Assembly: GCA_964429815.1 (NCBI GenBank)
Contig: CAYSCM010000001.1
Coordinates: 1-64,000, forward strand
Direction: 5' to 3'
DNA from: an uncultured Candidatus Saccharibacteria bacterium
Lineage (GTDB): Bacteria; Patescibacteriota; Minisyncoccia; Phycocordibacterales; CAYSCM01
Length of the DNA stretch: 64,000 nucleotides
A program made the position numbers and the translations under genes. The notes under the pieces are model-generated. The model was not told the origin of the DNA. It saw only the letters and a program-made list of their open reading frames with translations, and did not search any database. Shown one piece after another: positions 6,872-37,394 of this stretch (position 1 is the first letter of the stretch; each line of letters begins with the position of its first letter).

Positions 6872-7132
6872 TGGTCGCCCACCCGAAGTGCTTATAGTTT
6901 ACGCCATCATTTCGAAAATTACCTAGAAAAAATGTGGAAAACTGGCCAGGTAATTCCTAGATATGTCGCCACACTTTTTAGCCCTTTGAATAAAGGTTTC
7001 TTAGCTAGTCCAGCGCGAGACCTGCCGAGGCTCATTTATTATTCCGCCCAGTTCAGGCCTAGATTTCTGATGCTCCTCCTGTAGTGCTTTGGCCGAGAAA
7101 TAATATGCCTTAAAACCTATATTTATATATCG

Positions 7133-9650: not shown

Positions 9651-9668
9651 GGAGGGAATACTAGCAGA

Positions 9669-10643: not shown

Positions 10644-10682
10644 AGAGGTCAGCCTACGACACAGGAGCCTTTTAGCAAAACG

Positions 10683-22637: not shown

Positions 22638-22756
22638 TGAAATTCGATAGTAGCATGGTAGACGTTTTCTACAACCGGCCCACTGCGCCATGGTTACAGA
22701 CTTTTTGAATATAAAAGCGCCCGCACGTTGAAGTGCGGGCGCAGAGTCCTTATCCA

Positions 22757-23833
22757 TTAGGCGCTGAGGCCTCGTATCGCTGCGGCAGCGATCGTTCCCT
22801 CAAAGGGCCGGAGACGTTCCCGGACCATAGAAATGGGAGTCGGCACGAGTGCGAGGAAACGTTCGGCGATGAGCGGATCGTCCGCCTCCACGTCGGTACA
22901 AAGCCCGAGACGAACGAGCGGAGCCTGCGTCGCGCCCGCGAAATCCGCCTTGAGCATTTTTCGCGTCCGCTCGCCGACGACGGAAAGCGCCACCTTGCCG
23001 CTCACGACCGCTGCTGTGAGGGAGCTGGTAGCGCCGCCCGCAACGACCGCTTTCACCTGCGGCAGTGCGATGACCTCATCGGTCGTCGGCCCCACCGGAG
23101 AGGGTACAAGCCGTTCGCTGATCGGAGAAAAGCACTGACGCAAGTAGGTCCCGAAGGCCCTTCCTCCGTTTCCGGGCGCCGGTATTTTCTCCCACTTTGG
23201 GTGGAGCCGAACGCACAGACGCCAGGGTGCCGGAAGTTGTCGCATAAGCCGTATGGCTGCTGCAATCTGCTCCTCGGCCGCACCGTTCTCCGGCGAGCAA
23301 AACTCGCTGAAAACGATGACCGGCTTTTCCTTCCATTCCTTTTCCGCCCACGCAACGAGATCATCGCGTGGAATCGTGGGTTTGTCGGGAACGGCATGGC
23401 TGCCGACGATGACGGTCCGGAGGCTCCTGCCCCAGATCTTTTTCGCCTGCGATTCTCCGAGCAGGTCGGGCGTCAGAAGAAGGTCAGGGCGTTCGTAGCA
23501 ACGACTCGAAACTCCTGCTTGGTCCTCGAAACCGACCCAGGGGATCTTGCGCCGTGACGCCTGTTGCGCCGCGATGCTCTCCAGCTGCATCGGGGAGCTG
23601 AAGCCGACGGCAAGCGCGACGTGATCGAGTGGGCCACCGAAAAGCGGCCCGACGCCCTCGTCTGGATGTATCGTCTTATAGGATAGTTCCTGGCTTATCG
23701 CTACATCTGCACTGCGTCCGTGTTCTTCGCACCACAGTTCGCAGGAAATCCCTGCTTTGCGTAGGTGCGGGATCGTAGCGACTATCATCTTTGCGGGAGA
23801 GATATCCCGCACCAAAAAGATCACTCTTCCCAC
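22757..23833 (-). CDS. Hypothetical protein (possible GT-B-like / polymer-synthesis accessory protein)
   Basis: 358 aa, protein-like composition; antisense ORF 22733..23557 (+) is Arg-rich junk. Confidence 0.45.
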   Translation of the reverse strand: MGRVIFLVRDISPAKMIVATIPHLRKAGISCELWCEEHGRSADVAISQELSYKTIHPDEGVGPLFGGPLDHVALAVGFSSPMQLESIAAQQASRRKIPWVGFEDQAGVSSRCYERPDLLLTPDLLGESQAKKIWGRSLRTVIVGSHAVPDKPTIPRDDLVAWAEKEWKEKPVIVFSEFCSPENGAAEEQIAAAIRLMRQLPAPWRLCVRLHPKWEKIPAPGNGGRAFGTYLRQCFSPISERLVPSPVGPTTDEVIALPQVKAVVAGGATSSLTAAVVSGKVALSVVGERTRKMLKADFAGATQAPLVRLGLCTDVEADDPLIAERFLALVPTPISMVRERLRPFEGTIAAAAIRGLSA

Positions 23834-23995
23834 CGGTCACCTCCATACTTTGAAAAGAACGTCCTTAAAACAGTACCCTAGATTTTTCTTTTGTCAACAT
23901 TTCTCACTGTTTTGCGTCTTGAAACGCTGCATTGCATAAGCGTGTTTCTCTAGGTAGAGTGCATGTGGCTATAGGTTCTCAAACCGGAGGAGGTC

Positions 23996-24715
23996 ATGCC
24001 GAAGGGTAAAGCGCCTCCGATCGGAGGCATAAGTCTAGATCTCGAAGGGACGCTTATCGATCTGGAGGAATTCCACTTCGAGGCGTTCGTGAACGCCGCG
24101 TCGGAACACGGCTATACGATCACTGTCGACGAAATAGTAGGCCAGCACCCCTACGTGGTTGGTGGCGGTGACGAGCGAGTCGCCGAAGCGGTGCGAGAGG
24201 TATGTAATCTCGGACTCACTATCCAGGAAATCCGGCGCTCCAAGAATGCGCACTTCACGAAACTTGTTAACGGGAGATCCATCCGCCTACGTGCCGATGC
24301 CGAACGCGTCCTTGCGCAGGCACAGCGCCTCGGTCTGAAGCTCGCTATCGGTTCGTTGACCGATCGCGCGCGGGCGATGCACCTCATTAACGAGACCGGA
24401 CTTCTCCAGTACGTGAGGCCCGAGTACATTGTGCTCTTCGAAGATGTCGCCCACCACAAACCGGAGCCAGACGTGTACCTCGAGACGGCACGGCGAATGG
24501 GGATCGACCCGACCGAGCAGTTGGTGTTTGAAGATTCAAACACGGGCATCGAGGCGGCACGACGCGCGCGCTCTGCTCGAGTGGCAATCCCTATATTCCA
24601 GACAAAAGAATACCTTGAACGTCTCGTCGAGGCCGGTGCGTCGCGTATATTCGGTTCGTGGCGCGAAATTAATCTCGAGGGCCTTATCGAGAGCATTAAC
24701 GAGGGCAACCGCTAA
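23996..24715 (+). CDS. HAD-superfamily hydrolase (subfamily IA, beta-phosphoglucomutase-like)
   Basis: Motif I ISLDLEGTLID; motifs II-IV present; good SD GGAGGA 8 nt upstream. Confidence 0.8.
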   Translation: MPKGKAPPIGGISLDLEGTLIDLEEFHFEAFVNAASEHGYTITVDEIVGQHPYVVGGGDERVAEAVREVCNLGLTIQEIRRSKNAHFTKLVNGRSIRLRADAERVLAQAQRLGLKLAIGSLTDRARAMHLINETGLLQYVRPEYIVLFEDVAHHKPEPDVYLETARRMGIDPTEQLVFEDSNTGIEAARRARSARVAIPIFQTKEYLERLVEAGASRIFGSWREINLEGLIESINEGNR

Positions 24716-24733
24716 CCACGGATGCCCTTTTTC

Positions 24734-25192
24734 TTACTCACGTGGGTTTTCAAAAACGTCGATGTGTTCTTCGGGGACGGAAATTTCTATGTCTCTTCCG
24801 TAGACGATTCCCTCGATCTTCGGCGCAAGAAGTTCAATGACGCCACGCTCCTTCGTCTGTATATCCGAGGGAAGCGGGTAATAGATGTAACCTGAATAGG
24901 AACGACTCTCAAAGCGGATATCTACTGGAACCAACTGAAATGTTTCGGTAACTCTCGGATGCCATGTGAACGTCATCGTATAGTGGGGATCCTTCAAGCG
25001 AAACTGCCGGGGCGCGATCGTCATGTTGATCGTACCTGTGAAGAGAGACTCTGCTCCCGGAAGTCCTTGTTCGATAAAATACGGCATCTGTTGCACGACG
25101 GTCGCATTGAGGCCATCCTTGCCGGTTGCGCTCATGCCTGAGGCTATTTGATGGCCTTTTCGTATTTTTCCTTTGAGAACCCTTTTTTTCAT
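24734..25192 (-). CDS. DUF120 / CTP-dependent riboflavin-kinase-like domain protein
   Basis: LKGKIRKGHQIASGMS...TGTINMTI resembles the archaeal RibK G-x-V-x-x-G-x-G and GTLNV motifs. Confidence 0.45.
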   Translation of the reverse strand: MKKRVLKGKIRKGHQIASGMSATGKDGLNATVVQQMPYFIEQGLPGAESLFTGTINMTIAPRQFRLKDPHYTMTFTWHPRVTETFQLVPVDIRFESRSYSGYIYYPLPSDIQTKERGVIELLAPKIEGIVYGRDIEISVPEEHIDVFENPRE

Positions 25193-25206
25193 GTGCAGCG
25201 TGGATC

Positions 25207-25923
25207 CTACCGATTGCTTCTGCTGAGAATAAACTCGTAGTATTCCCAGTTCTTGGGAGTATCAAGACCGGTGTACGCTTCCTTCACGGGGTGCGCTAGT
25301 ATCTTGTCGCCGCTCATGTGGTTTTTTTCAAGGAGCGTACGCGGCCATATCACATCGGCCGTACCAATGTGGCGATATGCTTTTGGCAGAGCCTGGGTAG
25401 GCATATTTATAAAACCCTTCTCCCCGGCGATGGCAAGAATTGGGCTCAGAAGTCCATCACTAGAAATTTTATACATCTTATAGGGACTCGGCTCAGCCTC
25501 GATCACCGTGCGCACGGAATCTACCTCCGGGTGAGCCAGTAAAAGTTCGATTGCAGCATCTACATCCTCAACGCTCCGTAGGGGCGAGGTCGGCCGTAGC
25601 TGCACCACCACGTCTGGCACGTATTCCTCATTTTCCTTAAGCCAGACAAGTGCATGTTGAAACACGGGAAGATCGGGCGTCATATCCTCGGCCAATTCGG
25701 ACGGCCGCATAAAAGGAACCTCCGCCCCGTAGGACGTTGCGACGGCGGCTGTTTCTTGATCGTCGGTGGAGACCACGATGCGGTTAATGTGTTTGGATTT
25801 TTTTGCGTGTTCGATGGTCCACGCGATGAGGGGCTTGCCGCCAAGCACCTTTACGTTTTTCCGCGGAATACGCTTCGAACCGCCTCGAGCTGGGATGATG
25901 GCGATGATTTTCGAAGTTGCCAT
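25207..25923 (-). CDS. Acylneuraminate/ulosonic-acid cytidylyltransferase (CMP-sugar synthetase, NeuA/KdsB family)
   Basis: IIAIIPARGGSKRIPRKNVKVLGGKPLIAWTIEHA, VVSTDD. Confidence 0.85.
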   Translation of the reverse strand: MATSKIIAIIPARGGSKRIPRKNVKVLGGKPLIAWTIEHAKKSKHINRIVVSTDDQETAAVATSYGAEVPFMRPSELAEDMTPDLPVFQHALVWLKENEEYVPDVVVQLRPTSPLRSVEDVDAAIELLLAHPEVDSVRTVIEAEPSPYKMYKISSDGLLSPILAIAGEKGFINMPTQALPKAYRHIGTADVIWPRTLLEKNHMSGDKILAHPVKEAYTGLDTPKNWEYYEFILSRSNR

Positions 25924-26017
25924 AGGGTGATACTTACCCTAGGTACAACCGAGCAAAAAGTCAACGCGTTTTGAATGTTGCCTGGAAAAAGATATAACGT
26001 AGTCATCTTAACCGGCT

Positions 26018-27046
26018 ATGTCTCGTATTCTTGCGGCAACCAAAGACTCCCAATCGGCTCTTTTCGTGCAGGAAATCCTGCAGAGCCTTTCACCTAGTCA
26101 CGAGATCTTTGTCTTTGCAGAAGGTATGTCAAAAACGTTTTGGAAAAATGCGGGAGTTCCGCTCTCGTACGAAGCCGACGTGGACGGATCATCAGACTCG
26201 AAGCTCGCGTCGGAGCTTGACCGCATCAACCCGCGACTGGTTCTCACCAGCACCTCCTCCCCCGCAGGAATCGAGGCAAAAATCGCCGACCTCGCCAAAG
26301 CCCGCCGCATTCCCCTTGTGATATTTGCCGACATATGGGGTGGCGTGTCCCGGATCGGAGCTAAAGCGGACCTCCTTCTTGCCTTTGACCAACAGGAAGA
26401 AGACATAGAAGCGATAGCGTATCCGGATATCCCTCGAGTGCTTGTCGGCGACCCTATGATCAAAAAAATTAAAGATTCCAAAAACTCAATGCGCAAAGAA
26501 ATCCAAGATCACTTCGAACACCTCGACCAACGAGGCCTTCGCACCTTGCTTATCGTGGGACAAGGGGGTTCCTACACAGGGGCCATGCTCGAGGTGGCAA
26601 GGCAATCCCTTTTGCGCAGTTCCTCCTCGTGGCGCGTTATTCCGCGGGTGGTCCATCCGAAAAAACCCGACCCCACCCTTACCAATCTATGGAATAGCAT
26701 CGCGCAAGAACTCGGAGATACCGTGCTTACCATCGATGGCGGTTGGAGTACCGACGATGTGGCGATCTGCTCTGATGCTACTATTTCCATTTTCTCTACC
26801 GTTCTCAGGTATGCGGCGGAGAGCGGCAAGCTTGCACTCTCGGTGTCGACGCCAGAAACCCTTGCCGGCATGCTCAAATCCACCTCGATCCCCTACTATC
26901 CGCCGACTCGAATTGGATATGTGCGCGAGATTACGGGACCGGTAAATCTCGATGAAGAGCTCAAAGTGTGGCAGGCCATGGATCGCAAGGGAAGAATTCC
27001 CTTCTCCTCGACAGTGGCAAGGGAGGCAATCGAGGGTTTTCTTTAG
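26018..27046 (+). CDS. Hypothetical protein
   Basis: 342 aa, no confident family from sequence inspection. Confidence 0.45.
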   Translation: MSRILAATKDSQSALFVQEILQSLSPSHEIFVFAEGMSKTFWKNAGVPLSYEADVDGSSDSKLASELDRINPRLVLTSTSSPAGIEAKIADLAKARRIPLVIFADIWGGVSRIGAKADLLLAFDQQEEDIEAIAYPDIPRVLVGDPMIKKIKDSKNSMRKEIQDHFEHLDQRGLRTLLIVGQGGSYTGAMLEVARQSLLRSSSSWRVIPRVVHPKKPDPTLTNLWNSIAQELGDTVLTIDGGWSTDDVAICSDATISIFSTVLRYAAESGKLALSVSTPETLAGMLKSTSIPYYPPTRIGYVREITGPVNLDEELKVWQAMDRKGRIPFSSTVAREAIEGFL

Positions 27047-27549
27047 GATCGGCGATCAACCACGTTGGGTTTCGGAAAGTGCGTAAGCGGTATCGCTTCC
27101 TTGGCAGGAATTTTAATTATCCAAAGCCGTCCGGCTTGCCTCCCCGTCCAGTGCCGATGCGGTTGCCCTGCGGGGATAAACAGAATATCCCCGGCACCGA
27201 CCGTATACGTCGTGCCGCCTTGTATTCCGTTTGCCCGAAGTTCCAGCTCGTTGGTGCTGCCGTCCTCCCTCCGGCGCACAAACACCTCCGTGGGAGTGCC
27301 ACCCACTTCAAAGTGAACTTCCCCGTCTATGCCAATCCATAGGTCGCCTTCGTGACGATGGATTTCCACCGCATTATCTCCATCGGCGACGTTTTTTTCT
27401 ACGAGAATAGAGACCGGGGCCCCAAGCGCATCGGCTTGGCTCTTGAGAGGGTCTGGCTGATACTTGCCCTCCTTAAGCGCTTCGAGCGAGGGAGAAAGGG
27501 TCTCACGAGATACCGAAGCTTTGATAAAGGCGCAGGGCTGGAGTTCCAC
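27043..27549 (-). CDS. Cupin-domain protein
   Basis: 168 aa; cupin motifs EIHRHEGDLWIGIDGEV...GDILFIPAGQPH. Confidence 0.6.
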   Translation of the reverse strand: MELQPCAFIKASVSRETLSPSLEALKEGKYQPDPLKSQADALGAPVSILVEKNVADGDNAVEIHRHEGDLWIGIDGEVHFEVGGTPTEVFVRRREDGSTNELELRANGIQGGTTYTVGAGDILFIPAGQPHRHWTGRQAGRLWIIKIPAKEAIPLTHFPKPNVVDRRS

Positions 27550-27551
27550 GT

Positions 27552-28604
27552 TTATTTCCTGCGCAATTTTTTCTGAATGGGAATTTCCGCTTCGATGATG
27601 CGCTTAACGCCATCCCCAAAGGCCGCCTCCATCGAGCGCACATCCGCGACGAGCTGCTTAAACTCGGCTGGTTCCATGCTGGCCGACTGATCTGAACCAA
27701 ACATTTTTTTATCTAGGGTGACGTGGCGTTCAATGAGATGCGCACCGAGCGTGGCGGCGGCGACCGAGGTTGCAGTTCCCCGCTCGTGTCCGCTGTAGCC
27801 GACCACTACATCGGGAAACAGCCTTCGAAGGGTGTAGATCACCTTCAGGTTTAAATCTTTATCCTCAGAGGGGTAGGTCGAAACGGTATGAAGGAGGATC
27901 AAGTTTTCAGTACCGAGGAGATTGACTGCGGCGTGCACTTCTTCCATGGAACTCATGCCTGTTGAAAGAATGACCGGCTTTTTGCAAACATCCTTAATTT
28001 TTATGAGAAGCCCGTGGTCAGTGATGCTTGCTGAAGCAACTTTCAAGCAAGGCACCCCCAGTCGCTCCAGCACGTCAACGCTTTCCTCATCCCACGGCGA
28101 AGCGAACGCGAGGATCCCCTTCGCGTTTGCGTAGGAGAACAGGTCCCGGTACTCATCTTCCGTAAATTCGAGTGCCCACTTCAAGTCACCGTTGGTGCTG
28201 TCTTTAAAATCGCTCTTGCGCAGTCGCGCAACTGCCTCCTTTCCAAGAACACCCCGCTTGACTGCATTTTCGAGTACCGCGCGGTCAACAGGGCGCGGCT
28301 TTGCGAGTTCTTCGGCAGAATAGACGACCGGTACCGTGCGCTTTTGAAATTTAACGGCCTGTGCACCAGCTTCTACGGCCGCATCGATGAGGCGCTTTGC
28401 AATCTCGACATCCCCGTTGTGGTTTATGCCGATTTCGGCAATGAAAAAAATGGGATGCTCCTTCCCAACCGGGATACCTCCTACGTGGACGGTTTTCGGA
28501 ACTGGGGAGTGAAAACCGAGGAGTCGGCGCACGCTGCCTGAAATGCTCATGGGGGACACTATACTGCGCATATATATATGTTGTAAACGGTGGTTACTTA
28601 ACAA
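27552..28604 (-). CDS. N-acylneuraminate/ulosonic-acid synthase family (NeuB/PseI/LegI-like); alternative starts at 28571 or 28550
   Basis: IFFIAEIGINHNGDVEIAKRLIDAAVEAGAQAVKFQK, C-terminal SAF domain. Confidence 0.85.
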   Translation of the reverse strand: MLSNHRLQHIYMRSIVSPMSISGSVRRLLGFHSPVPKTVHVGGIPVGKEHPIFFIAEIGINHNGDVEIAKRLIDAAVEAGAQAVKFQKRTVPVVYSAEELAKPRPVDRAVLENAVKRGVLGKEAVARLRKSDFKDSTNGDLKWALEFTEDEYRDLFSYANAKGILAFASPWDEESVDVLERLGVPCLKVASASITDHGLLIKIKDVCKKPVILSTGMSSMEEVHAAVNLLGTENLILLHTVSTYPSEDKDLNLKVIYTLRRLFPDVVVGYSGHERGTATSVAAATLGAHLIERHVTLDKKMFGSDQSASMEPAEFKQLVADVRSMEAAFGDGVKRIIEAEIPIQKKLRRK

Positions 28605-28695
28605 TAGACAACTCCGAGAGTCAACGCGAGGTTACACCTCCCTCCACAAATGGAAAGGCGCCGACGATTGCCCGTCGGCGCCCACGTGAAAGGCC

Positions 28696-29409
28696 CTAGC
28701 CGATCACGATCTTCTTCAATTCCTCCCAAGAACGGACAAACTCGGCCTTGCGCTGTTTGAACACGTCCTCGCTTTGCTCGAGAGTTTCGAGAATGAAGCT
28801 GTCGATCTCCACGAGGCACTTGCCAAGTCCTAGTTCGGACTCGTCGGAGGTGTCGATGAGAAGGGGCTGATAGAGCAGTGGGAACTCAAATTGCTCGAGC
28901 GCTCCGCGAATACCGGTGAGATCAAAAATAGAGGCATTCGACTTGCGCCGCTCTTCCATGGAGCGATTCGCGCGATCGACGATCACCTCGGTTGCGGCAT
29001 AGAGGAGCACGACCTTTGGCTTGACGGAGCTTGGGGTCGCCGGTTCAGGCAACTCGTCACGCACGCGGGCCTCCGCTTCGATCGCCTTCACGTACGCGTC
29101 GGCGCGAGCGACCATGTCGAGAAAAGGCTTCTGATGTCCCTTTTCGGTGAGCATCACGGCTTCGGTCGCGACCATGGGAGCCCCGAGGACGAGAGCTTCG
29201 AGGATTGCATTGCGGACCTTTTCGTTTTTGTAGAGGTGCTCGCTCTTGGTTACGTGGGTGTCCCCGCGGTCTCCGTAGAGCTTCTTGCGGATGTCATCCA
29301 TCCGGACAAGGGTTGCCCCTTTCGCGTACGGAGCCTCGAGCACCCTGTTGAGAATCGTGGACTTGCCGGCATAGGGCATGCCGGAAGCGACAAACACCGT
29401 ACGGTCCAT
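28696..29409 (-). CDS. P-loop NTPase kinase (AAA_33/zeta-toxin-like), paralog A
   Basis: Walker A GMPYAGKST; C-terminal PLLYQPLLIDTSDES shared with 29571..30203. Confidence 0.6.
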   Translation of the reverse strand: MDRTVFVASGMPYAGKSTILNRVLEAPYAKGATLVRMDDIRKKLYGDRGDTHVTKSEHLYKNEKVRNAILEALVLGAPMVATEAVMLTEKGHQKPFLDMVARADAYVKAIEAEARVRDELPEPATPSSVKPKVVLLYAATEVIVDRANRSMEERRKSNASIFDLTGIRGALEQFEFPLLYQPLLIDTSDESELGLGKCLVEIDSFILETLEQSEDVFKQRKAEFVRSWEELKKIVIG

Positions 29410-29468
29410 GGGACCTCCTTATTTTGATTTTCCTTTCTGGATAGCATTTTACACTAGCGTCTACGCCA

Positions 29469-29514
29469 TGTCAAATTTTGCCATCTATATAATGCCGCGT
29501 CAAATTTGACAATA
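29469..29514. promoter_or_regulatory. Divergent promoter/operator region: half-site TGTCAAATTTT (29469-29479), TATATAAT box (29486-29493), perfect 12-bp palindrome GTCAAATTTGAC (29499-29510)
   Basis: Seen directly in the 161-bp AT-rich spacer between the divergent kinase paralogs. Confidence 0.5.
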
Positions 29515-29570
29515 AAAAAATTAATGTAGAGTATTCGCGGCAAGAACCCACCAGCCCCAAGGAGCGCGAG

Positions 29571-30203
29571 ATGAAGCACCTATACCTTCTTTCTGGGCTT
29601 GGCACCAGCGGCAAGGATTACTGGGCGCAGCGGATACTCGCCTGGTACAAGGAAGAGCGCCCCGAGCTCATCACGGCATTCGTCGGTATCTCGCAGGCCC
29701 GCCTCAAGTACTGGGGCAAAAGCGCCGGCATGACGGACGCAGACCACCTGCTCAAAAACGAGATCACGCTCACCGATGTTGCGGTCGAGTTTATGGCGAA
29801 GAATACCGACGTGGTCGTCCTCAACATGACCATGCTCACGGTGCTGCAACACCAGGTACCGTTCATGGCGATGCTGAACAAGACTCGCGCGCTCCTTGCC
29901 CTCAAGGAGCGCGAGCTCCGGCACCGCTTCCCCGGGCGGACTCCGGAGGAAGCGGGCATCGAGCTGCGCGCGATGGTCTTTACCTGCGATTTCGAGACGA
30001 CCAAGCGCCGCATCGAGGCTCGCAATCGGGGGGAGAACAAATCTGGCGGGATTCTCGATATCGCCGAGTTCGAAAAGGGCCGCAAAGCCTTCGAACTCCC
30101 GGCTCTCTACGAGGCCATCACGGTCGATACCTCGGACGAGTCCCCCTCGTACGAGATGGCCAGGAACGTTACGATCCGTAACCACATTGGCTTCCCTACT
30201 TGA
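29571..30203 (+). CDS. P-loop NTPase kinase, paralog B
   Basis: Walker A SGLGTSGKDY; C-terminal PALYEAITVDTSDES. Confidence 0.6.
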   Translation: MKHLYLLSGLGTSGKDYWAQRILAWYKEERPELITAFVGISQARLKYWGKSAGMTDADHLLKNEITLTDVAVEFMAKNTDVVVLNMTMLTVLQHQVPFMAMLNKTRALLALKERELRHRFPGRTPEEAGIELRAMVFTCDFETTKRRIEARNRGENKSGGILDIAEFEKGRKAFELPALYEAITVDTSDESPSYEMARNVTIRNHIGFPT

Positions 30204-30226
30204 TTCGGGGTTGCTCGAATCAGAAA

Positions 30227-30252
30227 GCCCCGACGTACGTCGGGGCTTTTTT
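30227..30252. terminator. Bidirectional rho-independent terminator: palindrome GCCCCGACGTACGTCGGGGC followed by TTTTTT
   Basis: Seen directly; lies between the convergent genes 29571..30203 (+) and 30251..31213 (-). Confidence 0.65.
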
Positions 30253-31213
30253 ATGTCACTTTTTGTGAAGGATCGAGAGCGCCCTTTTCAAGGGCCGCAA
30301 TATTTTCAAAAATCTTCGCAAATGCTTCCTGCTTCCACTCGCGGGTGTTCGTAGCCACGTGCGGAGACACGATGACCTTTTTGTGAAGGACGATCTTTCG
30401 TAGTGTTTCATCTTCAAAGGGAGGTTCCTTAGAAAACACATCAAGAGCCGCCCCCGCTATCGTCCCTTTCTCAAGGGCCGCAAGGAGATCCTCCTCGTTT
30501 ACGATGCCGCCGCGGGCGGTGTTAATGAGATACGCCGAAGGTTTCATGCGCGAAAGTGACTGCACGTTGATGAGATTCCGCGTTTCGGGAGTAAGCGGGA
30601 CGTGAAGGGTCACAAAATCGCTCCTCGATATGATCTCCTGAAGTGAGGCCTTCTCCATGCCATGCTCCGCAGCAAATTCTTGATCGAAGTTAGTGTCGAA
30701 TGCCATAACGTGCATGCCAAGAGCGCCCGCCATTTTTGCCACCTCCTTGCCGATACTCCCCAAACCCACTATGCCGAGCGTCTTCCCTGCGATCGTGTCA
30801 CAAATTTCTTTCTGCCAAAGGCCTTCTCTCATGGCGTCTTGAAATTGAACTATTCGTTTTGCAAGCGCACCTATGAACGCAATGACCATTTCGGCCCCAA
30901 AACGTGCGTGGAGTTTTGGAACATTCATAACGGTAACACCGAGCTCTCGTGCGGCGGCGAGATCTATGTGATCGTACCCAACCCCAGCTGCCGAAACAAA
31001 GCGCAGCGAGGGAAATCGCCTCATCAGCGAAGCGTCAACTACTTGCGGAGCTCCGACGATGAGCCCGATCACCGAATCCGAATCAAATCCCTGCGGTGGC
31101 TTCATATCTTTGAGGAGCTTTAGCTCATAGCCCTCGGCTCGCATCGTCTCCGCGTGGACTGATTTCAAAAAAAAATCGTGGAGCCCACGACTGTTAGTAA
31201 GAATGGTCTTCAT
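30251..31213 (-). CDS. D-isomer-specific 2-hydroxyacid dehydrogenase (NAD-binding)
   Basis: GIVGLGSIGKEVAKMAGALGMHVMAFD; catalytic R/E/H region. Confidence 0.85.
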   Translation of the reverse strand: MKTILTNSRGLHDFFLKSVHAETMRAEGYELKLLKDMKPPQGFDSDSVIGLIVGAPQVVDASLMRRFPSLRFVSAAGVGYDHIDLAAARELGVTVMNVPKLHARFGAEMVIAFIGALAKRIVQFQDAMREGLWQKEICDTIAGKTLGIVGLGSIGKEVAKMAGALGMHVMAFDTNFDQEFAAEHGMEKASLQEIISRSDFVTLHVPLTPETRNLINVQSLSRMKPSAYLINTARGGIVNEEDLLAALEKGTIAGAALDVFSKEPPFEDETLRKIVLHKKVIVSPHVATNTREWKQEAFAKIFENIAALEKGALDPSQKVT

Positions 31214-31281
31214 TTCTATTACGATAGATCAAACAAGAAAAAACACAACGGGGTTACCGCTGTGTTTGAAGGTTCTTTAGG

Positions 31282-32268
31282 CTACGCTTTCGCGAGAGGT
31301 TCCCGCGAAAGCGCGCCGATCACATTTCGTAGCGAAGCCATGGCGCGTCGGTCAGAGGCTTCCTTACTCTTGGATGCAATGTGCGGGGTAAGAATCACGT
31401 TATATCCCTGCTTCGCGCAGCGCGCGAGACGCATAAACGCACTCCTGTGGTAGGGCGGTTCTGCCGAGAAGACATCGAGGGCAACACCCCCCATCTTCCC
31501 TGCTTCGACCCTATCGGCGAGCGCGTCTTCATCAACAAGAGCTCCCCGGCAGATGTTGACGAGATAGGCTCCCTCGCGCAAAAGGGAGAGCTTTTCGCGC
31601 GAGAGCATGCCACGGGTCTCTGGGGTCAGTGCGAGCGCGACCAGAATGAAGTCGCTTTTGCGAAGAACCTCCTCGAATGAGCAGAGCTTCAACACCCCTT
31701 CACGTTCGAGAAGTCGGGCTCCCTCCCGCGATGTCCTGTTCCAGCCGAGGATTGCCCCCGCACCATTTTGTTGAAGTCGCTTCGCAATTGATACCCCGAT
31801 AGCTCCGAGTCCGACGATGCCGCAGGTTGCTTCGGGAAGCCCCACACCAACAGGACGCGCATCCCACGGGCGGTTGGCATCGGCATCGCCTCCGGCGAGG
31901 AAATGGTGCCCGAGCACCACGCGCCGCCCCAAAGCAAGCACGAGGCTAAGCGCGTATTCGGACACCAATTCCGTACCGAGGTCCAAGGTGGTGACGGTGA
32001 TTCCCCGCGCGCGAGCGTACGTGAGTGGGACGTTGTTGGAGCCCGAACCGTTGCGGGCAATGGTTTTGAGGTTGACCATCCGTGCAAGCGCATCGACAGT
32101 GAGAATCTCGTGCCCAAGAAGAAGGGCGACGACCCTCTCAGGCTCCGCAAGTGCGCCTGGATTTCTTTCGTGAAGAACTTCGAGACCCGCATCCTTGGCG
32201 AGAGTCTGGAAATCCTTTTTGCCCGCATAGGTTCCGGGCGTTACGACAAGAACATTTTCTTTCTGCAT
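31282..32268 (-). CDS. D-isomer-specific 2-hydroxyacid dehydrogenase, second paralog
   Basis: GIVGLGAIGVSIAKRLQQNGAGAILGWNRTS; start at MQKENVLVV (ORF open to 32298). Confidence 0.85.
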   Translation of the reverse strand: MQKENVLVVTPGTYAGKKDFQTLAKDAGLEVLHERNPGALAEPERVVALLLGHEILTVDALARMVNLKTIARNGSGSNNVPLTYARARGITVTTLDLGTELVSEYALSLVLALGRRVVLGHHFLAGGDADANRPWDARPVGVGLPEATCGIVGLGAIGVSIAKRLQQNGAGAILGWNRTSREGARLLEREGVLKLCSFEEVLRKSDFILVALALTPETRGMLSREKLSLLREGAYLVNICRGALVDEDALADRVEAGKMGGVALDVFSAEPPYHRSAFMRLARCAKQGYNVILTPHIASKSKEASDRRAMASLRNVIGALSREPLAKA

Positions 32269-32440
32269 GCCCTTCTCCTTCTTTCGTGGCCAACTCATGG
32301 GGCCCCTCGCAGTTGTTCGGGTTTGAGACGTGCAAAATCCTGGGCCATACTACTTACCGCTTGTCAAATAGTCAACTCCCCGATCTATAAAAAGTTAAGA
32401 GCGGTCCGAAGACCGCTCTCGTAGGGCAGAAATCCGCAGG

Positions 32441-33028
32441 TTAGCCGTAGGGCAGCTCAAAGGGATCCTTCTTGTGGACGACTTCGACCAGGAAGTTCGC
32501 GAGGTCGCGAATCGCACCCTCGCCGCCTGGCCGGATGCTCACGAAGTGGCAAATCCTCTTGATGGCCTCCTCGCCGGAGATCGGCGCTGCCGAAAAGTGC
32601 ACGGCCTTGAGCATCGCGACATCGACAAGGTCGTCGCCCATGGCCCCGCATTGATTAAGTGTTCCCCCGTGTTTGGCGAGCCATTCCTTGAGCGTCTCGA
32701 GCTTCTTGGGCCCGCCGCACCCTTCGAAAAGGTCGATGGGGGGCCAGGCACCGCTTTTGCAGGAAGGGAGATTGTTCAGCCGCTCTACGAGCGCGCGGAC
32801 ACCGGCTGCGTTATCATCCTTCTCGTTGGTGATGACGCACAGGCGGATGCCGAGCGCCCGCATAAGAGAGAGCCCCTGGCCGTCGTAGTACGTGCGGATT
32901 TTGGGTTTGAATTTCACGCCCCCGATCTCGACGCCTTCCCACACGGTGTTTGGAAAAAGGCATCCGTCGGAATCAAACGCGAAGAAAGAGACTTCGCGGG
33001 CACGTTCGAGTACTTCGGTGGACCACAT
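32441..33028 (-). CDS. KdsC/YrbI-family HAD-IIIA sugar-phosphate phosphatase
   Basis: FFAFDSDGCLF (DxDGxLT-type motif I), GDDLVDVAML; start at MWSTEVL. Confidence 0.75.
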   Translation of the reverse strand: MWSTEVLERAREVSFFAFDSDGCLFPNTVWEGVEIGGVKFKPKIRTYYDGQGLSLMRALGIRLCVITNEKDDNAAGVRALVERLNNLPSCKSGAWPPIDLFEGCGGPKKLETLKEWLAKHGGTLNQCGAMGDDLVDVAMLKAVHFSAAPISGEEAIKRICHFVSIRPGGEGAIRDLANFLVEVVHKKDPFELPYG

Positions 33029-33160
33029 GGTCCCTCCTGTTTGTTTGTTGGCTACTGTTTGGCCGGACGCATTCTGACACATCCATTTTATTTGTCAATA
33101 TTCTTCCAGGCTGTCTGGCAATAGAAACCCGTGCTAAGCTTCGCGAGTAACAAACGCGCT

Positions 33161-33697
33161 ATGGACCACCTTAGTCCAGAACTTAGGAAGAAATTCTCGC
33201 AGGTACAGTTTCTCGCGCTCGACTTCGACGGCATTTTCACCACGGGCCACGTGTACGTGCGCCAAGATGGAGAAGAAAGCGTTAAGTGCGACCGGCGCGA
33301 CGGCTTTGGGATTGAGCTTCTGCGCCGAGCCGGAGCCGTTAAAGCTTGCATCATCTCGCGAGAGCCAAACCCCGTCGTGACGGCGCGCGCAAAAAAGCTC
33401 CAACTCCCGGTGTGGCAAGGGATCGAGCGCGGAGGAGGAAAGCTCGAGGTACTCAAAGCTCACGTGGCCGAGCTCGGCATTGCGCTTGAGAACGTCGCAT
33501 ACATGGGGGATGACCTCATCGACATTGCGGTGCTACGAAGCGTCGGACTCCCTATCAGCGTCCCGAACGCCCATCCGAAAGCGCAGAGAGAGGCCCTCTA
33601 CGTCACCAGAGCAGGCGGCGGGGACGGAGCGATCCGTGAGGTCGCCGAGCTTCTCTTGCTAAGCAAAGGTTTCGACCTCGAGGAGCTCTCCCGTTAG
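33161..33697 (+). CDS. KdsC/YrbI-family HAD-IIIA sugar-phosphate phosphatase, second paralog
   Basis: LALDFDGIFTTG, YMGDDLIDIAVL; ORF begins at 33131, Met at 33161 preferred. Confidence 0.75.
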   Translation: MDHLSPELRKKFSQVQFLALDFDGIFTTGHVYVRQDGEESVKCDRRDGFGIELLRRAGAVKACIISREPNPVVTARAKKLQLPVWQGIERGGGKLEVLKAHVAELGIALENVAYMGDDLIDIAVLRSVGLPISVPNAHPKAQREALYVTRAGGGDGAIREVAELLLLSKGFDLEELSR

Positions 33698-33737
33698 CCC
33701 AGTGACCCTTTATATGCGTGGTATGGTTATCTCACCT

Positions 33738-34454
33738 ATGAAAAACGATGTCGTGCTAGTGATCCCGGCTCGCGGTGGAAGCAAGGGAGTGCCGCGGAAA
33801 AATATCCGCCCGCTCTATGGAAAGCCCTTGGTTGCCTACACCATTGAAGCGGCGCTTTCCTCAGGAGCCATTAGCCGCGTTATTGTCTCGACCGATGATC
33901 AAGAGATTGGAGCAGTGGCAGAAAAATTTGGTGCGGAGTATCTTGACCGACCGAAAGAAATTTCCGGTGATAAGGTGACACTCGAGCCGGTGATTAAACA
34001 CGCTCTTGCGGCGCTAAAAGAAAAGGAAAACTACGTACCCACCTACATTGCCTGCATTCAGCCGACTTCCCCACTCCTTAGTGGAGATGTTATACGACGT
34101 TGTGTGGAAAAACTTACAAAAGAAAATTTTGATTCATGCATTACTGCGTTTTTGCCTGACACCTACGAATGGAAGTGGAGTCCAATCGTCAAAGACGGTA
34201 AAGAAGTCGGCTTCGAACCTGAACGACCTGTTATGAAGCGCGTGGTGCGGCAAGATTTGCCCAAGGTTTACCACGAGAACGGCGCCTTTTACGTCACCAA
34301 GACCTCACTTTTTAACGAAATCGGCCATCGCTGGGGAGGCAAGATGGCGATCGTTGAGATGACGCAGTTGAATTCTATACAAGTCGATAGCGAAGACCAA
34401 TTCTGGTTTATTGAACAGATCCTCCGCAAGCGCGAAAAAGACAACAAATCGTAG
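33738..34454 (+). CDS. Acylneuraminate/ulosonic-acid cytidylyltransferase, second copy
   Basis: VLVIPARGGSKGVPRKNIRPLYGKPLVAYTIEAA, VVSTDDQEI; ORF begins at 33702. Confidence 0.85.
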   Translation: MKNDVVLVIPARGGSKGVPRKNIRPLYGKPLVAYTIEAALSSGAISRVIVSTDDQEIGAVAEKFGAEYLDRPKEISGDKVTLEPVIKHALAALKEKENYVPTYIACIQPTSPLLSGDVIRRCVEKLTKENFDSCITAFLPDTYEWKWSPIVKDGKEVGFEPERPVMKRVVRQDLPKVYHENGAFYVTKTSLFNEIGHRWGGKMAIVEMTQLNSIQVDSEDQFWFIEQILRKREKDNKS

Positions 34455-34564
34455 CCGCAGTCACTAGACAAATCATCGATTTTCTGGTCTATTGACACCA
34501 GTAACAGATCGCCCTCTAAAAATGTTTAGAGGGTAGGCTCTTTTACAGTTTACAGGAGGAACCA

Positions 34565-36307
34565 ATGACTCTCGAGCTCAGGGACTTTGTCCCGAAGAAG
34601 GCCCTCGGGCTCCATCCCGCCGACGTTGTCGCTGGGATTCCCTGGGGAGGACTCTCCGGTATGCGGGTGTGTTTCATCAACATGCCACTGCGGGAGTCCG
34701 CGAAGCCAAATACCCCGCCGCAAGGTCCCGGCCTTATGGCGGCCCGTCTTATGCAGTATGGCGCTGACGTCTCGATTATCGACCTCAACGGCTACCGTAT
34801 CGATGACGAAGAAGCGCACAAGCGCGGACTCGTCAATGGCCGACACGTCTCCCACAATGAGGCGCGTCAGCTCATCGAGGCGACTTTCCACAAGTTCGGC
34901 GAACCGCACGTGATTGGCCTTTCGGGGAAAATCACGACGTTGCGCTGGCAGGAGTGGACCGCCAAGACGTGTCGTTCGCTCGCTCCAGAGGCGTTTCTCA
35001 TCTCCGGCGGTGGGCTCGCGACCGAGTTCAAAGAAGGACTCTTCAGCTGGGTGCCGCAGCTCGACGCGGTCGGCCACTCGGAAGGCGACGACATCATGGT
35101 CGCCTGCGTGAATGACGTTCGCAAGAGCGGAGGCAAGCGCGAGCGCATGACCGACTCGCCCTACTACGTGGGCGAAATCGGCGGACGCCACCGCTTCCTC
35201 TATGCGGGCGATCGACCAAGGGACCTCGATGCGCTACCGTTTGCTGCGCTCGAACTTCTCGAAGAAGACGTCTTTGGCAATCGCATACTCGACGAGTACA
35301 TCGCGACCCCCGTATGGGGACTCGCGGCGAACAACTCGTCGGCGGCACCTTTCGAGATGAGGAAGTCTCTCACGACCGTCTCCTCTCGCGGCTGTCCGTA
35401 TGCCTGCGCGTTCTGCTTCCGTGGAGCGCAAGGCGAGCAAAAGTGGGGGATCCGCTCCCCCGAGAACCTGCGAGCCGAAGCCGAGTGGATGATTCGGAAG
35501 TATGGCGTGGATTTCATCGGGTTTCCCGATGACAACTTTGCCGTAAGCGTCAAGCGCTGCCAATCGCTTCCGGAGGCCTTTGACGGGCTCTCGTTTCGTT
35601 GGGGCACGCATACGCGCCTTGACGAATGCACGCTCGATCGGATCGTGCCCATGGCGAAAGCTGGGTGCATCTATATCGGCGTCGGTGCCGAATCGGCCTC
35701 GAAACACACCCTCTACCGCATGAAAAAGGGCGGACACATCGTCCGCAAGGACGGCGTGGAGCGTCTCACGAAATGGAACGGGTTCGAATTTCCGACAACG
35801 ATGATCGAGGGGATTCGAAATTGCCGAGACGTGGGTATCCACGTGAACGCGACCTGGATCATGGGATACCCAGGGGAAACCTTGGAGGACCTCAAGACCT
35901 CGGTTGCTTTCATTTCCTGGCAACAGGAGCACTACACCAAGGGATTGGTGCCCGGCACGCCGGAGTATCAAAATGCCTCGGCGTCGGTGAATCGACGCAT
36001 GTTCACGGCGACGTGGTATCCGGGGACCACCATGGTGGAAGCCCCCGAAGCCACGAAACCGCGGGAGCTCCTCGGCGAGCACTTCGGGATTCGTTTCGTC
36101 GAGAAAGGAAGCGGGCATGCACACAAGTTCGTCCCCGTTCCCGACGACGCAATGAAAGCCTATGTGCTGGAACTCGATGACGCGACTAAGATCCTCCACG
36201 GATCCGACGGAGCGCCCATCAACTACTCGGACATGCCGGAGGAGGTCTTCCTCGAGGCCCGTAGTCACATCGATTCGGGTCAAACGGAAAAGATCCTGTC
36301 GATGTAA
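34565..36307 (+). CDS. B12-binding-domain radical SAM enzyme
   Basis: 580 aa; N-terminal B12-binding-like region, CxxxCxxC cluster SSRGCPYACAFCF. Confidence 0.85.
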   Translation: MTLELRDFVPKKALGLHPADVVAGIPWGGLSGMRVCFINMPLRESAKPNTPPQGPGLMAARLMQYGADVSIIDLNGYRIDDEEAHKRGLVNGRHVSHNEARQLIEATFHKFGEPHVIGLSGKITTLRWQEWTAKTCRSLAPEAFLISGGGLATEFKEGLFSWVPQLDAVGHSEGDDIMVACVNDVRKSGGKRERMTDSPYYVGEIGGRHRFLYAGDRPRDLDALPFAALELLEEDVFGNRILDEYIATPVWGLAANNSSAAPFEMRKSLTTVSSRGCPYACAFCFRGAQGEQKWGIRSPENLRAEAEWMIRKYGVDFIGFPDDNFAVSVKRCQSLPEAFDGLSFRWGTHTRLDECTLDRIVPMAKAGCIYIGVGAESASKHTLYRMKKGGHIVRKDGVERLTKWNGFEFPTTMIEGIRNCRDVGIHVNATWIMGYPGETLEDLKTSVAFISWQQEHYTKGLVPGTPEYQNASASVNRRMFTATWYPGTTMVEAPEATKPRELLGEHFGIRFVEKGSGHAHKFVPVPDDAMKAYVLELDDATKILHGSDGAPINYSDMPEEVFLEARSHIDSGQTEKILSM

Positions 36308-36325
36308 TCCAGTTCTCTCACTCAG

Positions 36326-36358
36326 GGACCGCAGCAATGCGGTCCTTTTTTATTTTTA
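36326..36358 (+). terminator. Rho-independent terminator GGACCGCA-gcaa-TGCGGTCC + TTTTTTATTTTTA
   Basis: Seen directly 19 nt after the radical SAM stop. Confidence 0.7.
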
Positions 36359-36431
36359 TGGTCGTTCGCATCCTCATCCTGACCAATCATCGTGCTTTTT
36401 GATGTGAGCGTGCTTTAGGTATAGTGGAGCG

Positions 36432-37394
36432 ATGAAGATAGTACGGTGGTCCATACCCAAGCACCTCGATCTGTCGATTGAGATTTCCGGTAGAGAACAT
36501 ATGGCACAGGGAGAAAAGATGGGGTCTACGAAAGCCTTGGATGTCCTGCGCGGAATAACCTTCAGCGGCTCAGCGCCGGCGATACAGTTTGCCGATGTCG
36601 AGTCTTTATTTTCCTTTGTAGAAAAAAAATTTTTACATAAGACATTTGCGGGAGTCGGCATCGAAGTCGGCGCGGGGCCGATGATATTTAGCTCGCTCCT
36701 TACGCGCTCACGACCAAACATTCAACAGATGTATGGAATCGAACTAAGTGGCGGTATCGTAGAATTCATTGCCCCGGGAGTGGTTGATGAATTGCTGGGA
36801 CCCAAGAGTGAAAAGGTAGTCGGGGTCATCGGCAGTTTCGACGCGATGGAGCTTACAAGCGAGAGTGTCGATTTTGTTCTTGATTTTATGTCGCTTCACC
36901 ATGCGACCGACCTCGGAGAGGCGTTCGCCGAATGCTACCGGGTGCTAAAACCAGGCGGCTTCGTTGTTCTTTTTGACAAGGCTCGCCCCGATTCCTTCAC
37001 CTCTCAAGACCTGGAGGGATTGCTCAATACCGAGTACAGCGATGAAGAGAAAAAACGCTTTGGGGTGCCTTCCGGCGAACACTTTACACGCCGGATGAAC
37101 GGGGAAAAAGAATACCGGCTTAAAGATTGGTCGGCGGGGGCCTTAGAGGCCGGTTTCCCGACCCTTATGCATTGGCGACTCGCGCGCACCAACGTGCCGG
37201 GTATCTCAGGATTGTACCGACGTTTGCTTTCTCATGTGCCGCTACGCACCCAGATGGCTACTACCGCTATTGCACAAAGCGTACTGGGCAGCGGCTCAAG
37301 AGTGAAGTTTTCACAAAAAAATTTGGTGTACTCGCGGTACGTGAACCCCTTCCCCCGCGAGATCTCGCTCATGATCGCGCACAAGGCTTACTAA
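36432..37394 (+). CDS. Class I SAM-dependent methyltransferase
   Basis: GIEVGAGPM (motif I), VLKPGGFVVL. Confidence 0.75.
   Translation: MKIVRWSIPKHLDLSIEISGREHMAQGEKMGSTKALDVLRGITFSGSAPAIQFADVESLFSFVEKKFLHKTFAGVGIEVGAGPMIFSSLLTRSRPNIQQMYGIELSGGIVEFIAPGVVDELLGPKSEKVVGVIGSFDAMELTSESVDFVLDFMSLHHATDLGEAFAECYRVLKPGGFVVLFDKARPDSFTSQDLEGLLNTEYSDEEKKRFGVPSGEHFTRRMNGEKEYRLKDWSAGALEAGFPTLMHWRLARTNVPGISGLYRRLLSHVPLRTQMATTAIAQSVLGSGSRVKFSQKNLVYSRYVNPFPREISLMIAHKAY

Follow-up and report, generated by a model that had tools for sequence, protein, structure and literature searches.

A candidate nonulosonic-acid module with a probable phosphorylated route in a surface-glycan island of an uncultured Candidatus Saccharibacteria bacterium

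What does a bacterium of the candidate phyla radiation (CPR) make with one NeuB-like synthase, two cytidylyltransferases, two KdsC-like phosphatases and two D-2-hydroxyacid dehydrogenases? The question is raised by positions 24,734 to 34,454 of a 64,000-nucleotide stretch of DNA from an uncultured Candidatus Saccharibacteria bacterium (contig CAYSCM010000001.1, positions 1 to 64,000; hereafter the window), for which a first-pass annotation had proposed a duplicated module. In our analysis this interval is very probably the centre of a nonulosonic-acid biosynthesis module of ∼14.6 kb (22757-37394), lying within a Wzx/Wzy-type surface-glycan island of >45 kb. The core of the module very probably follows a phosphorylated route, as for 3-deoxy-D-glycero-D-galacto-nonulosonic acid (Kdn) or animal sialic acid. 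The full pathway model, in which this core is joined to a sugar-phosphate supply, tailoring enzymes and a second branch, is given a probability of roughly 0.55.

The core would consist of three steps. A NeuB-type synthase without a SAF domain would condense phosphoenolpyruvate (PEP) with a sugar 6-phosphate to a ulosonic acid 9-phosphate, the KdsC-type phosphatase at 33161-33697 would release the free acid, and an enzyme of the CTP_transf_3 family would produce the acid activated with cytidine monophosphate (CMP), ready for transfer to a glycan. Since a 6-phosphate rules out a 6-deoxy sugar, the product would be of the 9-hydroxy (Kdn/neuraminic) type and not of the 9-deoxy legionaminic/pseudaminic type.

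The synthase is encoded by an open reading frame (ORF) at 27552-28604 on the minus strand, which matches the Pfam family NeuB with E=1.6e-72. The gene caller takes the ATG at 28550 as the start (332 aa), and the version with a TTG start gave no exact look-up match. The NeuB motifs EIGxNHxG, KxQ, GxS(D/G)H and ERH are invariant across an alignment of 16 sequences. The family assignment made earlier stands up: the protein scores 250 and 207 bits with the NeuB and PseI models and 17-18 bits with DAHP-synthase-type aldolases, and it does not group with non-sugar aldolases. Both scores are under the equivalog cut-offs (NeuB TIGR03569, 250 versus 399.65 bits; PseI TIGR03586, 206.7 versus 340.25 bits). 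A C-terminal SAF (antifreeze-like) domain is typical of Neisseria meningitidis NeuB, PseI and human NANS. In the window's synthase no Pfam match to this domain was obtained, and the chain stops ∼15 residues past the barrel; the closest PDB match, 6NCS (290 aa), is likewise too short to hold one. The 16 homologues have in common the invariant AVKFQKRT, the GYSGHE motif, a long insertion in the β2-α2 loop and the lack of SAF, and the insertion is CPR-specific. In animal NanS the α2-β2 loop binds the phosphate of the substrate (PMC8208679), and it is this loop that is extended in the window's synthase in the 16-sequence alignment. SAF-less NeuB proteins of environmental bacteria have been noted, without functional assignment (PMC8208679). 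The synthase is 31% identical to the Kdn-9-phosphate synthetase of Prymnesium parvum (sequence from the supplement of PMC6200933), and both proteins are SAF-less and carry KFQKR.

Metagenome-assembled genomes (MAGs) named Patescibacteria and Giovannonibacteria are among the sources of the closest synthase homologues (58-70% identity), in agreement with the CPR-like organism supposed before. The idea that ulosonic-acid genes would be notable in such organisms did not survive, as these synthases are common there: 120 clusters with 58-100% identity were found among the matches listed, and those of the closest that bear a name come from Patescibacteria MAGs. The literature library that was searched yielded no paper dealing with nonulosonic acids of CPR bacteria.

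The neighbourhood of the synthase was surveyed by scanning one genome per species with the 16-sequence alignment. Eighty loci were kept, from Saccharibacteria, Peregrinibacteria, Acidobacteriota, Chloroflexota, Actinomycetota, Melainabacteria and other phyla, and neighbours were counted by tblastn of all window proteins against them; four CPR loci (L086-L089) were added to give 84. KdsC-like genes homologous to phosphatase 33161-33697 lie beside the synthase in 63 of the 80 loci, usually touching it, and a CTP_transf_3 gene is present in 39 and a GmhA-like SIS isomerase in 20. SAF-less synthase, KdsC phosphatase and cytidylyltransferase thus form a trio that recurs widely across bacterial phyla. 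Because the KdsC-type phosphatase travels with the synthase, a phosphorylated route with an acid-9-phosphate intermediate is favoured. Phosphatase 33161-33697 itself passes the TIGR01670 (KdsC/YrbI) cut-off (114.3 versus 106.95 bits), and it scores 128 bits with a KdsC model and 90 bits with a Kdn-9-phosphate phosphatase model, both below cut-off. It has the HAD motifs DFDG and GDDLID and is 33% identical to the Kdn-9-phosphate phosphatase of Bacteroides thetaiotaomicron (BT1713). We infer that it would act as the acid-9-phosphate phosphatase.

The gene map below was built from the ORF listing, profile searches (Pfam, NCBIfam) and the gene calls of an overlapping public contig (Logan assembly of SRR12313482, 63 kb); the window's proteins were found again on a contig of 501,704 bp. 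NDP stands for nucleoside diphosphate and SAM for S-adenosylmethionine.

22757-23833, minus strand: divergent NDP-sugar 2-epimerase-like protein, 358 aa (hhalign to the family alignment)
23996-24715, plus strand: HAD-IA hydrolase (Pfam HAD_2, E=1.6e-19)
24734-25192, minus strand: 152-aa protein with a DUF120/RibK-like fold (predicted fold)
25207-25923, minus strand: cytidylyltransferase A, CTP_transf_3 (Pfam, E=1.2e-26)
26018-27046, plus strand: divergent NDP-sugar 2-epimerase-like protein, 342 aa (family profile and model)
27043-27549, minus strand: metal-type cupin, 168 aa (Pfam Cupin_2, E=6e-9)
27552-28550, minus strand, ORF open to 28604: NeuB-family ulosonic-acid synthase, 332 aa (Pfam NeuB, E=1.6e-72)
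28696-29409, minus strand: P-loop kinase-like protein (Pfam AAA_33, E=9e-8)
29571-30203, plus strand: second P-loop kinase-like protein (Pfam AAA_33, E=2.6e-6)
30251-31213, minus strand: D-2-hydroxyacid dehydrogenase, SerA/glyoxylate-reductase-like (2-Hacid_dh_C, E=6e-60)
31282-32298, minus strand: second D-2-hydroxyacid dehydrogenase (2-Hacid_dh_C, E=8e-43)
32441-33028, minus strand: divergent KdsC-like HAD phosphatase with insertions (TIGR01670, 53.4 bits)
33161-33697, plus strand: canonical KdsC/YrbI-type phosphatase (TIGR01670, 114.3 bits)
33738-34454, plus strand: cytidylyltransferase B, CTP_transf_3 (Pfam, E=2e-29)
34565-36307, plus strand: B12-binding radical-SAM enzyme (Radical_SAM, E=9e-16)
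36432-37394, plus strand: SAM methyltransferase, 320 aa (Methyltransf_11, E=3e-13)

The genes named by the first-pass annotation are real, each lying at, or a few codons from, the coordinates given there, and the synthase, cytidylyltransferase and phosphatase families of a NeuB-type biosynthesis and CMP-activation module are all present. The HAD-IA hydrolase does exist, but it lies just outside the start of the interval first described. The earlier list lacked the pair of AAA_33 P-loop kinase-like genes and the gene for the 342-aa protein. As for the supposed duplication, there are indeed pairs of paralogues, but at 27-40% identity they speak for old paralogy and not for a recent duplication: the cytidylyltransferases are 40% identical, the phosphatases 32%, the dehydrogenases 29% and the kinases 27%.

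Phosphatase 33161-33697, cytidylyltransferase B, the B12-binding radical-SAM enzyme and the methyltransferase form a plus-strand operon. Homologues of the radical-SAM enzyme (46-50% identity) are found in the NeuB clusters of the CPR/Saccharibacteria loci L012 and L086, and homologues of the methyltransferase (38-47%) in L007, L012, L086/L087 and L088, directly downstream of NeuB in four cases out of five. Since the same genes accompany the CPR-type synthase elsewhere, we regard the operon and the synthase together as the basic pathway and its tailoring enzymes. The B12-binding enzyme is probably a C-methyltransferase, and with the 320-aa methyltransferase it would modify the acid.

Both cytidylyltransferases keep the Arg/Lys residues that bind cytidine triphosphate (CTP), in the N-terminal motif IPARGGSK-x-(I/V)PRKN, as the earlier reading had supposed. 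The family pattern PARGGSKx(I/V)PxKN appears as IPARGGSKRIPRKN in cytidylyltransferase A and as IPARGGSKGVPRKN in B. At the second motif, R-Q-D ... N-G-a-x-Y, which includes the sugar/dimer-interface Arg, cytidylyltransferase B has RQDLPKVYHENGAFY, the canonical RQD...NGAFY; the corresponding stretch of A is PTQALPKAYRHIGTADV, with PTQ where its closest relatives keep PRQ. Both fall under the PseF model cut-off of 205.7 bits (A 151.7, B 150.9). Cytidylyltransferase A shares 45-51% identity with transferases that neighbour KdsC and NeuB in loci of Chloroflexi and Proteobacteria; in other bacteria its type and KdsC are often encoded by a single ORF. Cytidylyltransferase B shares 35% identity with the characterised CMP-Kdn synthetase of P. 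parvum and groups with it and with actinobacterial enzymes. Judged by these sequence relationships the two are different subtypes, and B would be the CMP-acid synthetase of the basic pathway. Cytidylyltransferase and KdsC-like phosphatase are joined in a single ORF of ∼415 aa in many loci of Chloroflexi and Proteobacteria (L010, L017, L051, L052, L054, L058, L061, L062, L065, L078, L079 and L081). At 8822-10873 of the Herbidospora mongoliensis locus L070, a single frame runs through cytidylyltransferase, phosphatase and synthase; this may be a triple fusion, or it could be an ORF artefact of a high-GC genome.

Where would the sugar phosphate come from? The 2-epimerase step upstream of the synthase had been thought missing, but a candidate is present as a very divergent family with two copies (26018-27046 and 22757-23833). 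The 342-aa protein had no match in Pfam, NCBIfam, PDB or a word-indexed protein search, and an exhaustive HMMER search recovered 193 representative clusters of similar length. A profile of 46 family members finds only UDP-sugar 2-epimerases in PDB (E ∼5e-4), with an alignment that spans the HP motif; the Pfam family Epimerase_2 (PF02350) matched neither the 342-aa protein nor any of the 46 members scanned. An AlphaFold model made with the family alignment is confident (pLDDT 95.3), and the top 39 Foldseek matches to it are all 2-epimerases. The predicted fold has two Rossmann domains (GT-B), appears nearest to the 2-epimerases and includes the HP motif. Residues D10, E86, D105 and D124 are near-invariant acidic positions of the family. 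The 358-aa protein, which had no Pfam or NCBIfam match and nothing usable in PDB, belongs to the same family by hhalign against the 46-sequence alignment (probability 99.8%, E=3.7e-29, 328 columns). Two other members have a readable context, on which the association of the family with NeuB rests; both are found in glycan clusters of CPR-like type, with NeuB and a cytidylyltransferase as neighbours, and the genes listed for these two contexts (∼14-20 kb) include no canonical Epimerase_2. Six of the 46 members match the Glyco_transf_4 N-domain, and the HP motif is also found in bacterial sialyltransferases. The family most likely provides a divergent NeuC/GNE-like step. A GT-B glycosyltransferase, such as a sialyltransferase, is kept as a minority alternative for the 342-aa protein, because all three comparisons rank 2-epimerases first.

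In our model a nucleotide sugar would be the substrate of the two 2-epimerase-like proteins, which would set free its 2-epimer; the 2-epimer would then be phosphorylated by a kinase, for which the P-loop proteins and the RibK-like 152-aa protein are the candidates. The P-loop protein at 28696-29409 lies directly upstream of the synthase and has the Walker A motif GMPYAGKS; no PDB or NCBIfam assignment was obtained for it. In the one at 29571-30203 the Walker A motif is atypical, with GTSGKD where GK(S/T) is usual, and the pairwise E-value of the two proteins is 3e-14. The 152-aa protein had been described as a DUF120 CTP-dependent-kinase-like protein. Its model does fold like CTP-dependent riboflavin kinase (the RibK cradle-loop barrel), but it does not match the PF01982 profile; there was no Pfam match at E<=10, nothing usable in NCBIfam and no PDB sequence match with a single sequence or a 2-sequence profile. 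The word-indexed homology search gave one homologue only, directly after a GH38 alpha-mannosidase gene and adjoining a SIS protein 37% identical to the window's own, a context that hints at mannose or mannose 6-phosphate metabolism. From its modelled fold the protein is a candidate small-molecule, perhaps sugar, kinase, co-transcribed with cytidylyltransferase A. Alternatively, mannose 6-phosphate could be drawn straight from central metabolism via the cupin or a SIS isomerase. The cupin gene lies 3 nt downstream of the synthase and had no useful PDB or NCBIfam match; that the protein is a sugar-phosphate isomerase or epimerase is a guess. It was also considered as a mannose-6-phosphate isomerase of the PF01050 type, and this was rejected for lack of detectable similarity to the phosphomannose isomerase (PMI) cupin of locus L094. 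The HAD-IA hydrolase is of the beta-phosphoglucomutase/sugar-phosphatase type (TIGR02009, 91.7 bits, under the cut-off of that model).

The remaining paralogues are what prompted the proposal of two ulosonic acids, one Kdo-like (Kdo, 3-deoxy-D-manno-octulosonic acid) and one nonulosonic. That proposal lacks a second condensing enzyme: the window holds one synthase, and profile searches found no second NeuB and no KdsA in its 64 kb. We consider a second activated product plausible; by analogy, it would more likely derive from the one acid than be an independent, Kdo-like acid. In this second branch cytidylyltransferase A, the two dehydrogenases and the divergent phosphatase would modify the acid, for example to an epimer, and the modified acid would be activated in a step of its own. 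A comparable case is EpaA/EpaB of Acinetobacter, where pseudaminic acid is converted to its 8-epimer by two oxidoreductases together with an additional cytidylyltransferase (PMC12053666). The CPR-like locus L091 has an EpaA/EpaB-like domain set beside NeuB, with CTP_transf_3, a short-chain dehydrogenase/reductase (SDR) and an aldo-keto reductase (AKR). Phosphatase 32441-33028 scores 53.4 bits with TIGR01670, under the cut-off of 106.95; it keeps the motifs DSDG and GDDLVD, has insertions, and heads a minus-strand run of phosphatase, dehydrogenase and dehydrogenase. Its homologues are detectable in only 5 of the 80 loci. Both dehydrogenases have the catalytic and NAD-binding Pfam domains, and the RG, E and H positions of the Arg/Glu/His triad are visible by eye. 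Dehydrogenase 30251-31213 (245 bits with the PGDH model, under its cut-off of 454) looks by eye to be of the NAD type, with an Asp after the second Rossmann strand, and dehydrogenase 31282-32298 of the NADP type, with NRTSRE at that place. Such a pair would weakly suit an oxidation-reduction couple.

Several observations weigh against this model. The profile that was used scores the P. parvum Kdn-9-phosphate synthetase at 159 bits and N. meningitidis NeuB at 161 bits, and the window's synthase is no nearer to the former; SAF-bearing NeuB copies in L091 and L094 carry KFQM and GYSGH. As overall similarity is no higher than to an ordinary NeuB and the motifs are non-diagnostic, it is mainly gene context that carries the phosphate-route assignment. 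The Thr of cytidylyltransferase A replaces an Arg that is conserved among its closest relatives, the RibK-like model of the 152-aa protein is of low confidence, and 2-hydroxyacid dehydrogenases are not among the oxidoreductase families of known epimerisation systems. Homologues of the cupin, the P-loop kinase, the RibK-like and the 2-epimerase-like proteins were found in none of the 80 genome loci and none of the four CPR loci, and the dehydrogenases have one weak homologue, in L018, among all 84. Almost no counterparts were seen there for cytidylyltransferase A with the RibK-like gene, the phosphatase-dehydrogenase-dehydrogenase run, the cupin and the P-loop genes. With homologues absent from the 84 loci, the comparative support for the accessory set is confined to the two contexts of the epimerase family. 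We also tried KFQK and GYSGH as markers of phosphate-using synthases and rejected them, as they did not separate SAF-less from SAF-bearing copies and detection of KdsC by regular expression was poor.

Three other explanations were weighed. The window might simply encode a plain Kdn pathway, running from fructose 6-phosphate to mannose 6-phosphate (by the cupin or the SIS protein), Kdn-9-phosphate, Kdn and CMP-Kdn, with the extra paralogues redundant or serving other island sugars and the 342- and 358-aa proteins being glycosyltransferases that transfer the acid. Kdn-containing teichulosonic acids occur in Streptomyces and some other actinomycetes, and homologous operons of cytidylyltransferase, KdsC and NeuB are found in Streptomyces, Herbidospora and Microbacterium; we know of no report of such polymers from the latter two genera. 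The three-gene logic is that of B. thetaiotaomicron and P. parvum (PMC6200933), a PF01050 mannose-6-phosphate isomerase cupin is present in the related cluster L094, and the RibK-like homologue adjoins an alpha-mannosidase. The Glyco_transf_4 matches within the 342-aa family and the HP motif shared with sialyltransferases would fit the transferase role. The window's cupin, however, bears no similarity to the PMI cupin, and the kinases directly upstream of the synthase are left unexplained, so that we hold this simpler pathway to be rather unlikely.

In the proposal of two separate acids, each would have its own phosphatase and cytidylyltransferase, and the dehydrogenases would supply a glyceroyl- or lactyl-type substituent. 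It would account for two phosphatases and two cytidylyltransferases that are each an old paralogue pair and for the GmhA-like SIS isomerase of the island, and Chloroflexi loci with two tandem cytidylyltransferases also carry two NeuB genes. Against these stand the single condensing enzyme, the lack in the interval of any acyl-activating or acyl-transfer enzyme seen for the hydroxy acid, and a SIS protein without the CBS pair of KdsD, whose score is GmhA-like and below cut-off; the idea is improbable. Still less credit is given to the view that the synthase stands in for KdsA as a non-orthologous replacement, with a pentose (or heptose) phosphate delivered by the SIS isomerase as the starting sugar and CMP-Kdo, or another acid of 8 (or 10) carbons, as the product of the module. 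The phosphatase does score best with KdsC models, and loci L021 (cytidylyltransferase, KdsC, SIS, NeuB) and L057 (NeuB, cytidylyltransferase, KdsC, SIS) match KdsD-KdsA-KdsC-KdsB gene for gene. In the window, however, the SIS gene is 10 kb off in another operon and its product is nearer GmhA than KdsD, and we know of no lipopolysaccharide in CPR bacteria. The phosphorylated route to one 9-hydroxy acid, with a derivative branch, is the reading we prefer.

The island that surrounds the module spans from ∼18.7 kb to past the right end of the window, with SecA, GatB and Obg upstream. It encodes a Wzy_C-TPR polymerase-like protein, a Wzx flippase, TagD- and TagF-like proteins, glycosyltransferases, an acetolactate-synthase-like thiamine pyrophosphate (TPP) enzyme, an E1 alpha/beta pair, a PfkB kinase, a DegT aminotransferase, several epimerases/dehydratases, a sugar C-methyltransferase and the GmhA-like SIS isomerase. 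An Rfam scan of the whole window gave no RNA family. The island also includes a bifunctional synthase of 3'-phosphoadenosine 5'-phosphosulfate (PAPS), with ATP sulfurylase and adenosine 5'-phosphosulfate (APS) kinase parts, and two sulfotransferases (20931-22757, 37391-38299 and 61070-61924, all on the minus strand), which may sulfate the glycan. PAPS synthase homologues (47-49%) lie 2-4 kb from a cytidylyltransferase-KdsC-NeuB trio in four unrelated genomes (L051, L052, L065, L078), and in L094 a sulfotransferase gene directly adjoins NeuB; the acid made by this synthase may repeatedly go together with sulfation. The TagF-like (Glyphos_transf) protein of ∼456 aa at 52354-53724 on the minus strand has homologues beside NeuB/cytidylyltransferase genes of CPR and Chloroflexi (L007, L010, L012, L017, L054, L061, L062, L065, L088, L091) and is a candidate transferase or polymerase that uses the CMP-acid.

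Other arrangements were seen around synthases elsewhere. The CPR-like relative L091 (2974-4923; also L092, 3865-5814) encodes a 649-aa fusion of NeuB, SAF and AP_endonuc_2, a xylose-isomerase-like TIM barrel, which adjoins the cytidylyltransferase, SDR and AKR genes. In the Chloroflexi loci L010, L017, L061 and L062 the order is TagF-like, cytidylyltransferase, cytidylyltransferase, KdsC, NeuB, SIS and a second NeuB-like gene, with a third NeuB-like gene in L061; this is a true two-synthase, two-transferase arrangement, unlike that of the window. A homologue of the window's TPP enzyme (40597-42366, minus strand) follows a NeuB-like gene and KdsC in 20 loci, often with DegT and an epimerase upstream (L009, L013, L016, L022, L023, L025, L027, L031, L034-L036, L039, L041, L044, L045, L063, L064, L066, L069, L072). 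These are mostly Acidobacteriota, Verrucomicrobiota and Planctomycetes, and only one of the 20 has a cytidylyltransferase, as against 38 of the other 60. This pattern suggests that there the TPP enzyme decarboxylates or carboligates the 2-keto acid in a CMP-independent branch. A phosphonate pathway was considered for the window on account of the TPP enzyme and of weak matches to PhpK-type radical-SAM enzymes, and was rejected (∼68-69 bits against cut-offs of 575-600, with no PEP mutase in the window). At the left end, a single ORF of at least 2299 codons (2-6898, minus strand) runs off the window. Its N-terminus near 6898 resembles an HTH_17-type domain, and in the remainder Thr, Ser, Gly, Ala and Asn abound and short repeats of 15 and 30 nt occur, with GC of 60-67% and GC skew of up to +0.34. 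The odd composition of the first 6 kb of the window is due to this ORF, which probably encodes a giant surface protein.

CPR bacteria live attached to host cells, and their surface glycans are almost unstudied. If the preferred model is true, a sialic-acid-like surface sugar, probably methylated and sulfated, would be a candidate determinant of host recognition or of phage and immune evasion. The phosphorylated route is usually regarded as the animal route, with few exceptions (B. thetaiotaomicron and a haptophyte alga). The new 2-epimerase-like family and the unusual kinases may complete it in CPR bacteria, and they are concrete enzyme candidates. Features that set the module apart from the known route are the SAF-less synthase with its loop insertion, the Pfam-invisible 2-epimerase-like family in two copies, the kinase candidates outside the ROK family, the second set of cytidylyltransferase, phosphatase and dehydrogenases, and the radical-SAM tailoring. 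A bolder generalisation, which we offer tentatively and with the balance against it, is that CPR and possibly other bacteria have assembled an animal-style sialic pathway from non-orthologous parts. Hydrolysing NDP-sugar 2-epimerases invisible to Pfam (193 clusters), a P-loop or CTP-dependent RibK-like kinase, one SAF-less synthase, and paired phosphatases, dehydrogenases and cytidylyltransferases would together yield two CMP-acids that differ in configuration or tailoring, one of them C-methylated by the radical-SAM enzyme, for a surface glycan.

How does the module compare with known systems? With bacterial NeuBCA and the unphosphorylated LegI/PseI pathways it shares a NeuB TIM-barrel synthase, a 2-epimerase-like step of GT-B fold and a CMP-synthetase, but its synthase is SAF-less and tightly linked to a phosphatase that those pathways do not need. 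The human synthase NANS carries a SAF domain, unlike the window's. Relative to animal GNE, the hydrolysing UDP-GlcNAc 2-epimerase/ManNAc kinase, the epimerase-like protein of the window is too divergent for Pfam Epimerase_2 and the kinase candidates are P-loop or RibK-like and not of the ROK type, and the counterpart of animal NANP is a KdsC-type phosphatase. The animal order GNE-NANS-NANP-CMAS would in this way be reproduced with unrelated parts. Modules of the Acinetobacter baumannii EpaA/EpaB kind (and the Aci/8eLeg modules) resemble the window in adding an extra CTP_transf_3 enzyme and two oxidoreductases to a single-synthase pathway; the likeness is one of gene content only, as the oxidoreductases of the window are D-2-hydroxyacid dehydrogenases, not SDR/AKR enzymes, and are unfused to the transferase. 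B. thetaiotaomicron and P. parvum are known to use the phosphorylated Kdn route, and animals the sialic version (PMC6200933). With the Kdn pathway of B. thetaiotaomicron (BT1714, BT1713 and CMP-Kdn synthetase) and P. parvum the window has in common a NeuB-family synthase, a KdsC-family phosphatase and a CTP_transf_3 synthetase, to which it adds a second phosphatase and cytidylyltransferase, kinases, 2-epimerase-like proteins, dehydrogenases and the B12-binding radical-SAM enzyme. The type of pathway, a phosphorylated Kdn/sialic route, is known, and this build of parts is new.

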